In this document: one piece after another, positions 21,001-24,000 of the stretch
Numbering within the stretch: the stretch's first letter is position 1
Layout: the number at the start of each line of letters is the position of its first letter
Program-made: the position numbers
Sequence record: NC_049919.1
Length of the DNA stretch: 61,564 nucleotides
Reading direction: 5' to 3' (one strand)
Origin: Escherichia phage SH2026Stx1

Positions 21001-24000
21001 TTTGTGGAAGCGGCTAATTTAATACTCCGGTTGCTGGAGGTAGAAGCTGTTGGTTCAGAGGTTGACGAACACTGCATGTCAATGCATACATAACCTTTAT
21101 TTGAAGTTGAATTTGGAATCAAGTTTCCTCCTGAATTAATGGTTTTTCATAATACTAACTATTGATAAAAATATTTTGCATTTCATTAAAATAAAAAATC
21201 CCATGGAAAATATTTTTTGTTAGTTATTACATACAGCACATCAGGTCGTCAATATAGTCTAACTATAGTTATCACCAAAAACTTGCCTCGATTTTAGATT
21301 TTTCCAGTATTTGTAGATATTGCACTGAACACCGAATACGTAGCAGAGGGTGTCTACACGATAACGTTCTATGAGCTACCATGTTGTCGAAAAATTGTTT
21401 AGTGAGTATGACATCAGGAATGTGGTGGTCTGTTTTAATATTTCTATTTCTATTTCTATTTCTATTTCTATTTCTATTTCTATTTCTATTTCTATTTCTA
21501 TTTCTATTTCTATTTCTATTTCTATTTCTATTTCTATTTCTGTTTGTTGTGGTTTTTTCTTTAGTTCATGTATTTCGATTTGTTTCTGAATTATCGGGGG
21601 TAGTGTCTTCCCTTTTCCCTGAGGCTTATCATGCAGTTATTTTCGCCATCTTGGTATTGTGGAAATACCGACATCCATAGCTTTGGTGAGCTCTGTTCAG
21701 GTGGCCAAATTCAGAAAACCATTACGGAGGAAGAAGGCGATGGCTAAACCAGCGCGAAGACGATGTAACCGTAAAAGAGAAGATTTAACTGTTAAAAGGA
21801 TATTTGAGTTACTAAGTTTCGATAAATCTACCGGGGTATTTAGATGGAAAGTTCCCACTCAGGGAAGGATAGCATTAAATAGTGTTGCTGGAGCTTTTGA
21901 TTCCAACGGTTATTCAATGATCATGATAGATGGGCGTAGATATAAAACTCACGTCTTAGTTTTTTACATAACTCATAATCGTTGGCCTGCTGGTCAAATT
22001 GACCACGTTAATGGAATTAGGACCGACAATAGGCCAGAAAATTTAAGAGAATGCCTGCCAATAGAAAATTCAAGAAATATAAGGATCCGAAAGAATAGCA
22101 AATCAGGTTGCAGAGGGGTTACTTGGCACAAACGACAGAAAAAATGGAATGTTAGGCTAGGATTCCATGGCAAGAGTAAACACTTCGGATGCTTTGATGA
22201 TCTGGAGTTAGCGGTACTAGTTGCTGAAGAAGCCCGAGATAAGTATTACGGTGATTTTTCCGGCAACGAAAGGAGCACTTATGCGAATCTATCGAAGGAA
22301 ATGTAAATGTTGCAATGAATGGTTTATACCAAAATATCAAAATCAATATTGGTGTAATGAGATTTGTGGAACCAAGATAGCACTCGAACGACGAAGTAAA
22401 GAACGCGAAAAAGCGGAAAAGGCAGAAAAGGCAGCAGAGAAGAAACGACGACGAGAGGAGCAGAAACAGAAAGATAAACTGAAGATTCGAAAACTCGCCT
22501 TAAAGCCCCGCAGTTACTGGATTAAACAAGCCCAACAAGCCGTAAACGCCTTCATCAGAGAAAGAGACCGCGACTTACCATGTATCTCGTGCGGAACGCT
22601 CACGTCTGCTCAGTGGGATGCCGGACATTACCGGACAACTGCTGCGACACCTCAACTCCGATTTGATGAACGCAATATTCACAAGCAATGCGTGGTGTGC
22701 AACCAGCACAAAAGCGGAAATCTCGTTCCGTATCGCGTCGAACTGATTAACCGCATCGGGCAGGAAGCAGTAGACGAAATCGAATCGAACCATAACCGCC
22801 ATCGCTGGACTGTCGAAGAATGCAGGGCGATCAAGGCGAAGTATCAGCAGAAACTTAAAGACCTGCGAAACAGCAGAAGTGAGGCCGCATGACGTTCACA
22901 GTAAAAACCATTCCTGACATGCTCGTTGAGGCATATGAAAATCAGACCGAGGTAGCCAGAATACTGAACTGTAGTCGCAACACGGTCAGAAAATACACTG
23001 GCGATAAAGAAGGAAAAAGACACGCTATTGTCAACGGTGTTCTTATGGTTCATCGCGGATGGGGTAAAGATACTGATGCGTGATATCCGGCAGGTTCTTG
23101 AGTGCTGGGGGGCATGGGCGGCAAATAACCATGAGGATGTGACCTGGTCACCCATTGCCGCCGGATTTAAGGGACTGATCCCCGAAAAAGTAAAATCACG
23201 CCCGCAGTGCTGTGACGATGATGCGATGGTGATATGCGGGTGTATAGCCCGCCTTTACCGGAACAATCGCGATCTGCATGACTTGCTGGTTGATTATTAC
23301 GTGCTGGGGGGGACGTTCATGGCGCTGGCACGGAAACATGGGTGCTCTGACACCTGTATAGGTAAACGCCTTCACAAAGCGGAGGGGATTGTTGAAGGCA
23401 TGCTGATGATGCTGGGAGTGAGGCTTGAGATGGATCGGTATGTTGAGCGTGAATTGCCGGGAGGGAGAACCTCTGTATTTTATCAGCGAAAAAATAGTTT
23501 ACGATCGTAAAAATCTGCATATCATGATAAGAGTGGTTACATTGCCACGCTGCTTAACCCGCCGATGCGCGGGTTTTTTTGTACCCAGAATCCTGTGAGC
23601 TATACGGAAAGTACACAGAAAGGAAGGTGCGACCACAATTAATAACAAAATCTTAAAAATTGCACATGGCACTATTAGTTTTCTAAATATTGTGTATTTT
23701 TTGTATTGCAGGATGACCCTGTAACGAAGTTTGCGTAACAGCATTTTGCTCTACGAGTTTGCCAGCCTCCCCCAGTGGCTGGCTTTTTTATGTCCGTAAC
23801 ATCCTGTGTATCAATAAATGTTGTTGTCTACGTACGTCAAGTAGTCGCATGAGATCTGACCAGATATGTTAAGGTTGCAGCTCTCTTTGAATATAATTAT
23901 CATTTTCATTACGTTATTGTTACGTTTATCCGGTGCGCCGTAAAACGCCGTCCTTCAGGGGGTGGAGGATGTCAAGAATATAGTTATCGTATGGTGCTCA

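Follow-up and report, generated by a model that had tools for sequence, protein, structure and literature searches.

Whether a long, pure tandem repeat between two divergent phage genes acts as a regulatory switch or only marks strains is the question raised by positions 21439-21540 of the Escherichia phage SH2026Stx1 sequence (NC_049919.1), whose whole 61,564-nucleotide stretch is here called the window. A sequence-only reading had described at this place a perfect (TATTTC)17 array, prone to slippage, between a gene encoding a protein of 590 amino acids (the 590-aa gene; minus strand, start 21122) and the HNH/ninG genes (plus strand, start 21740), and had proposed that its copy number alters promoter spacing or curvature and so works as a phase-variable switch for one or both neighbors. 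The array and its neighbors are as that reading had them. The switch is unsupported: no promoter brackets the array, the surrounding insertion sequence (IS) is dead, and the array is not tied to either gene. Judged by a primer site and a flanking sequence, the array is the known hypervariable repeat VNTR-9 (for variable-number tandem repeat), used in outbreak typing of Escherichia coli O157:H7, and the locus itself is thus already known. Most probably it is a neutral microsatellite lying within a dead IS and has no use beyond marking strains; neutrality and slippage as its driving mechanism are what we infer.

The array is a known typing locus in a second flank context

Direct reading and a regular-expression count both gave 17 perfect TATTTC units without interruption. 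Tandem Repeats Finder (TRF) reported a repeat of period 6 at 21439-21545, with 17.8 copies and 99% matches, one extra degenerate unit carrying the array on to 21545. The TRF score of 207 is the highest within the 61.5-kb window, where no other perfect repeat with a period of 3-9 reaches 4 copies, and a perfect hexamer run of at least 3 copies appeared in 0 of 50 shuffles. On the plus strand the array is G-free (A17 C17 G0 T68), with a G+C fraction (GC) of 0.17 versus 0.49 for the window.

For two decades the VNTR-9 locus has served to type outbreaks of E. coli O157:H7. Its forward primer in the PulseNet scheme has an exact site to the right of the array (Table 1), and the array with its 199-bp right flank is near-identical in strain EDL933, in strain 150, and in O111 strain 11128. 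Because the forward primer matches exactly and the array and right flank equal the EDL933 locus, we assign the locus to VNTR-9. Both VNTR-9 primers are given in PMC3321953 (Table A1) and PMC8461963; the repeat unit of VNTR-9 is 6 bp, and Vhec4, TR1, and O157-9 are synonyms for it (PMC3321953, PMC3768571). The reverse primer, GTGTCAGGTGAGCTACAGCCCGCTTACGCTC, has no site in the window at up to 3 mismatches and matches the EDL933 locus (L001) at 3744-3774, within an IS30 remnant. The window copy is therefore like the O157:H7 VNTR-9 in its TATTTC 6-bp unit, in the 199-bp right flank up to the HNH gene (~99% identical), in the forward-primer site, and in the behavior of its copy number, and differs from it on the left: in the classical O157 locus an IS30 end bearing the reverse-primer site lies 14 bp left of the array, whereas in the window an IS3-family remnant continues leftward and is followed by the 590-aa gene. 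The window copy also differs in sitting in an Stx1a prophage. Since the window lacks the reverse-primer site, standard VNTR-9 PCR would not amplify this copy. On this evidence, the window holds the VNTR-9 repeat in another left-flank context and not the amplicon that the PCR defines.

Some O157:H7 genomes, for example those of strains 644-PT8, 180-PT54, and F6321, have two places that match the array region. These genomes presumably carry the classical IS30-flanked VNTR-9 together with the Stx1a-prophage copy, the two sharing the forward-primer site. The second flank context (IS3 remnant and 590-aa gene), often found in Stx1a prophages, is out of reach of the standard reverse primer and may account for some null VNTR-9 alleles, and a hidden second copy in some O157 genomes matters when VNTR-9 alleles are called from assemblies. 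A separate perfect hexamer array, (GCCAGA)17.7, was seen in EDL933 at L001 2554-2659, ~1.35 kb left of VNTR-9 and inside a coding sequence annotated as "hypothetical protein"; from its position beside O157-9 and its 6-bp unit, it is probably the hypervariable locus O157-10/TR2/Vhec1 of multiple-locus VNTR analysis.

Copy number is highly variable. Among ~525 complete E. coli genomes it runs from ~4 to 23. The window's full context was found in 245 of these genomes, with ~5-23 copies judged from record spans that differ mostly by 6-bp steps, and the IS30-flanked O157 context was found in 281, with ~4-16 copies; two loci in E. albertii prophages that have the same module carry 6 copies. Copy numbers are partly inferred from spans and were verified by sequence for 6, 9, 10, 12, 17, and 23. 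Among the 60 best-ranked matches to the window's context, one record has 17 copies and only one has more (23). The Stx1a prophages nearest to the window, which belong to several O157:H7 genomes and are 99.6-99.8% identical to it over ~13 kb, have 9, 10, 11, or 12 copies versus 17 in the window; change in the array thus far outpaces change in its surroundings. The comparison across related prophages called for by the sequence-only reading thus shows that copy number is not invariant, and the slippage-prone character that it ascribed to the array agrees both with the range among genomes and with published passage rates. For VNTR-9, 6-23 repeats, 15 alleles, and a diversity index of 0.90, the highest of eight loci, have been reported (PMC3321953). 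Serial passage gave 4.3e-5 to 1.3e-4 mutations per generation at Vhec4, the changes being two single-unit insertions and one point mutation (PMC3777172).

Origin of the array in a decayed IS911-like element

The array is enclosed by the remnant of an IS911/ISEc52-like element of the IS3 family (Table 1). The 140 bp to its left and the 199 bp to its right match IS3-family transposase DNA on thousands of plasmids, and the two flanks are adjacent and collinear in an alignment to an intact ISEc52 copy. At the position of the array, intact ISEc52 reads TATTTC ATTTTC CATTTC, of which the minus strand is the OrfA codons GAA ATG GAA AAT GAA ATA (E-M-E-N-E-I), directly upstream of the frameshift site TTAAAAAAG. 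The window has (E-I)17 in place of these codons, and the array continues the frame of the orfA remnant as (EI)n. When the array was trimmed to three units, the remnant and ISEc52 OrfA were 53% identical by BLASTP (E=1e-24), the array falling on "IEMENEILK"; a Pfam search of the orfA remnant gave no match, and direct BLASTP to ISEc52 OrfA was needed. The orfB fragment is recognizable by its similarity to ISEc52. Both ends of the element can be aligned to ISEc52, the right end being degenerate, and the remnant stops 1 bp short of the HNH ribosome-binding site.

Collinear flanks, OrfA similarity, and both terminal repeats are shared with IS911/ISEc52 elements, including the K-12 IS911 that is interrupted by IS30. 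Unlike them, the window element has become a pseudogene: two internal deletions have removed ~740 bp of orfB and ~117 bp from the 5′ end of orfA, start codon included, stop codons are present, and the frameshift site is destroyed, with TTAAAACAG at 21430-21438 in its place. By these lesions, the element is a remnant and not an active IS.

The IS30 end found 14 bp left of the array in O157:H7 is at the same position where IS30 interrupts IS911 in K-12-type genomes. In the K-12-type genome (L137) and in EDL933 (L001 3960-4000), IS30 lies at the same nucleotide of the IS911-type sequence, 14 bp away from the proto-repeat in the one and from the array in the other; the IS911-type flanks of the two loci differ substantially, and the IS30 copies are ~97-100% identical. 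Together, these observations suggest either a target hot spot of IS30 or exchange between composite copies.

The simplest history that these alignments suggest is one of insertion, death, homogenization, and expansion. An IS911/ISEc52-like element would have inserted in minus orientation just upstream of the HNH/ninG ribosome-binding site, in a lambdoid nin region, and would then have decayed. The six orfA codons just before the A-AAA-AAG frameshift site are in themselves an imperfect triple hexamer, and in an inactive IS free of constraint, replication slippage would have homogenized this proto-repeat and expanded it into (GAAATA)n. The array would now gain or lose whole units at ~1e-5 to 1e-4 per generation, drifting between ~4 and 23 copies without demonstrable effect on its neighbors, and would be a neutral strain marker and not a switch. 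Locus identity, polymorphism, IS origin, and the absence of promoter or open reading frame (ORF) logic come from the present analysis, and whole-unit mutation in culture comes from the literature. Traceable to six codons of an IS911-like orfA, the array would neatly illustrate how a bacterial VNTR can grow out of a proto-repeat in coding sequence when selection no longer acts.

A scan for (TATTTC)4 covering genomes of 185,579 species found arrays in more than 120 unrelated species, where they are ordinary microsatellites; the TATTTC motif itself is therefore not diagnostic. None of these arrays from other species adjoins an IS3 OrfA, and there is therefore no sign of recurrent expansion at the IS site elsewhere. 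A locus from Proteus alimentorum (L018 2969-3199) has two long TATTTC arrays of 13 and 15 copies ~60 bp apart, unrelated to any IS3 OrfA.

Table 1. Features around the hexanucleotide array, in window coordinates
Feature	Position	Strand	Basis or remark
590-aa orphan cargo gene, left neighbor	19350..21122	-	GC 0.35; TTG start, AGGAGG ribosome-binding site
Only non-IS DNA upstream of the 590-aa gene	21123..21263	.	IS end mapped
Decayed IS3-family (IS911/ISEc52-like) remnant enclosing the array	21264..21726	-	blastn versus ISEc52, four-way alignment
orfA 3′ end and orfB 5′ end remnant	21299..21438	-	Includes degenerate -1 frameshift site
Spurious (IS)n ORF through the array	21371..21589	+	Annotated as "hypothetical protein" by the Prokaryotic Genome Annotation Pipeline (PGAP) only at 11 copies or more
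Spurious (FL)n ORF through the array	21381..21680	+	Start not conserved; in EDL933 begins inside the IS30 end
(TATTTC)17 array, the VNTR-9/O157-9/Vhec4/TR1 repeat	21439..21540	.	Minus strand reads (GAAATA)17
orfA remnant, upstream of the array in IS orientation	21541..21681	-	Reads ...AMDVGISTIPRWRK*LHDKPQGKGKTLPPIIQKQIEIHELKKKPQQT; translation and BLASTP
Left inverted repeat of the IS remnant	21691..21726	-	31 bp 97% identical to ISEc52
PulseNet VNTR-9 forward-primer site, GCGCTGGTTTAGCCATCGCCTTCTTCC	21729..21755	-	Exact match; none expected by chance
HNH_3 and AP2 endonuclease gene, right neighbor	21740..22306	+	Pfam; PGAP annotation
ninG (recombination protein NinG)	22281..22892	+	Pfam PF05766, E=3.6e-83

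Regulatory and coding alternatives

Contingency loci that tune promoters include the 7-bp repeats of Haemophilus influenzae hmw1A/hmw2A and the (TA)n of hifA/hifB; the (TAAA)n of Neisseria nadA and the poly-T tract of Helicobacter sabA are further examples. The window array is like these loci in being an AT-rich intergenic tandem repeat with a high slippage rate and a copy number that varies between isolates, and the idea of a phase-variable or rheostat-like switch, in which copy number acts on the 590-aa gene, on HNH/ninG, or on both through promoter spacing, helical phasing, or curvature, builds on this likeness: an AT-rich array lies between divergent genes, its mutation rate is like that of contingency loci, and its copy number differs among otherwise near-identical prophages. 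In contingency loci, however, core promoter or regulator-binding elements contain or directly adjoin the repeat, and expression is known to track copy number, whereas the window array has no bracketing promoter, is not conserved with either gene, and derives from a dead IS. No sigma-70-like promoter with at least 9 of 12 matches was found on either strand of 21123-21740, and a lenient 8/12 scan gave no site whose -35/-10 spacing depends on copy number. The lenient scan returned weak promoter-like sites on the minus strand at 21317>21291 and 21278>21251; the sole site touching the array (21464>21437, minus strand, 8/12) has a -35 that falls within the array and a -10 at the junction, and since both elements are fixed relative to the array edge, their spacing is independent of copy number. 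Neither the promoter nor the terminator scans found anything with a geometry dependent on the array. The array lies 316 bp from the start codon of the 590-aa gene and 199 bp from that of the HNH gene, inside an IS pseudogene and not in a native regulatory region, and HNH/ninG belong to the phage early rightward operon. Upstream of the 590-aa homologs in an E. albertii island (71%) and in Salmonella (~50%) the array is missing, as it is where the same HNH gene directly follows ninF, and it persists in O157:H7, where IS30 replaces the whole left neighbor. A unit of 6 bp makes a frameshift switch impossible, and since a period of 6 bp does not keep phase with the 10.5-bp helix and the T-tracts reach only 3 bp, strong planar curvature would not be expected. 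Thus the repeat is a hypermutable simple-sequence repeat, as in contingency loci, but it is not a repeat of frame-shifting unit length (no multiple of 3) within an ORF, does not lie in or beside promoter or operator elements, and does not travel with a regulated gene across homologs; hypermutability is the sole respect in which it resembles them. We regard a transcriptional switch as quite unlikely.

Composition offers other routes to a function. H-NS prefers AT-rich, TpA-containing DNA of this kind, and the array might lengthen a tract for such nucleoid proteins so that copy number tunes silencing of the low-GC island that holds the 590-aa gene; the island has a GC of 0.32-0.35 versus 0.49 for the window and 0.17 for the array, each unit of which contributes a TpA step. 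The array is nevertheless absent from copies of this gene outside phages, and binding to the flanking IS remnant would be just as likely whatever the copy number, which leaves this explanation a little less probable than the switch. Slightly less likely again is an action at the RNA level, where (UAUUUC)n from the plus strand could load Rho and (AAUAGA)n from the minus strand could bind the distal face of Hfq. The tract in the early rightward transcript is G-free (A17 C17 G0 U68) and unstructured, and UC recurs in it at 6-nt intervals; (AAUAGA)n fits the pattern (A-R-N)n perfectly; folding predicts a single-stranded array for either strand; and the location of the array, between ninE and ninG/Q, is within the nin-region transcription unit. 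The argument is purely compositional, however; neither the 9/12 nor the lenient scan found a minus-strand promoter right of the array, arrays of the same motif are ordinary microsatellites in the many unrelated species of the scan, and the tract came from IS coding sequence. Folding was no better than for shuffles on either strand (z = +1.1 and +0.4), and an Rfam scan of 18800-24100 at E<=1 found no family at the array and only an irrelevant plant microRNA match at 19253-19320. Least probable of all is a variable-length repeat in a small protein, either an (FL)n membrane peptide or an (IS)n ORF. Both ORFs exist, PGAP annotates the (IS)n ORF in several genomes, and the (FL)n frame is open in EDL933 too, but ORFs across the array are unavoidable, as all plus-strand frames of TATTTC are free of stop codons. 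Neither start is preceded by a Shine-Dalgarno sequence; the start codons are not conserved and lie in the IS30 end in EDL933; intact ISEc52 has the same open antisense frame, "FFNISFSISIHCSFFLSS"; there is no Pfam match; and PGAP makes its call only at 11 copies or more, with a length proportional to copy number. The annotated "hypothetical protein" has 62, 72, and 84 residues at 12, 17, and 23 copies (L002 4272-4460, L004 3133-3351, and L005 1133-1387, respectively), and no PGAP gene crosses the array at 10 copies or fewer. We rejected both ORFs as real genes, on the grounds that their starts are not conserved and that the ISEc52 antisense frame is equally open; the annotated protein whose length tracks copy number is an artifact that creates many spurious protein clusters.

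Taken jointly, the transcriptional rheostat, the H-NS tract, Rho or Hfq loading, and the repeat peptide are improbable, and a neutral microsatellite in a dead IS is the reading we prefer. Two points weigh against it. The mutation rate is within the range of true contingency loci, and in prophages of both E. coli and E. albertii the array has stayed pure, even through the IS30 rearrangement. Such persistence could come from selection rather than from the self-sustaining dynamics of long pure arrays, and an AT-rich, G-free tract that lies in the early rightward unit and precedes an AT-rich cargo gene could affect the binding of nucleoid proteins or the loading of Rho. An effect of array length on transcriptional read-through into ninG and Q via (UAUUUC)n, with consequences for Stx1 and the timing of late genes, or on silencing of the 590-aa gene via H-NS, seems to us very improbable; were it true, a marker typed as routine would have alleles with a phenotypic meaning. 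The locus offers little new biology, and the additions made here are modest: an IS911-type origin, two flank contexts that sometimes occur in one genome, and an annotation artifact.

Prophage setting and neighboring genes

The window is an Stx1a lambdoid prophage, with ninB, dam, and ninE upstream of the array and stx1A/stx1B at 24008-25243. In lambda biology, HNH/ninG lie within the phage early rightward operon, and the gene order of the window accords with this. From the end of ninE to 21726 runs the low-GC island described above. Homology to the lambda ninF/ninG junction was found at 21723-21768. The ribosome-binding site and first codons (MAKPARRRC) of the HNH gene are those of lambda ninG, and ninG proper begins anew at 22281, where its N-terminus is a new one. 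From this arrangement, the HNH gene resembles an insertion of the homing-endonuclease type within the 5′ end of ninG, and a 20-bp imperfect direct repeat (21758-21798) is situated at this junction.

Searches of Pfam, NCBIfam, and the Protein Data Bank (PDB) gave no sequence match for the 590-aa protein. Homologs ~47-93% identical to it occur in E. albertii, Salmonella, and Providencia; the 71% homolog in the E. albertii chromosomal island lies beside a gene for an NleF-type type III effector, and the Salmonella homologs (~50% identical) lie between cdd and sanA. It could be an uncharacterized effector or virulence cargo. An AlphaFold model of the protein had a mean predicted local distance difference test (pLDDT) score of 38 and was unusable for a fold search; this low-confidence model is all-helical, with an N-terminus of ~120 residues almost without predicted secondary structure. 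The likeliest place for the promoter of the gene is the short non-IS segment directly upstream of it (Table 1).

Elsewhere in the window, a 45-bp tandem duplication (2 copies, 84% matches) at 42075-42165 and several 9-bp repeats close by (42078-42127) have many GGx codons and may be a collagen-like Gly-X-Y segment of a tail-fiber gene.

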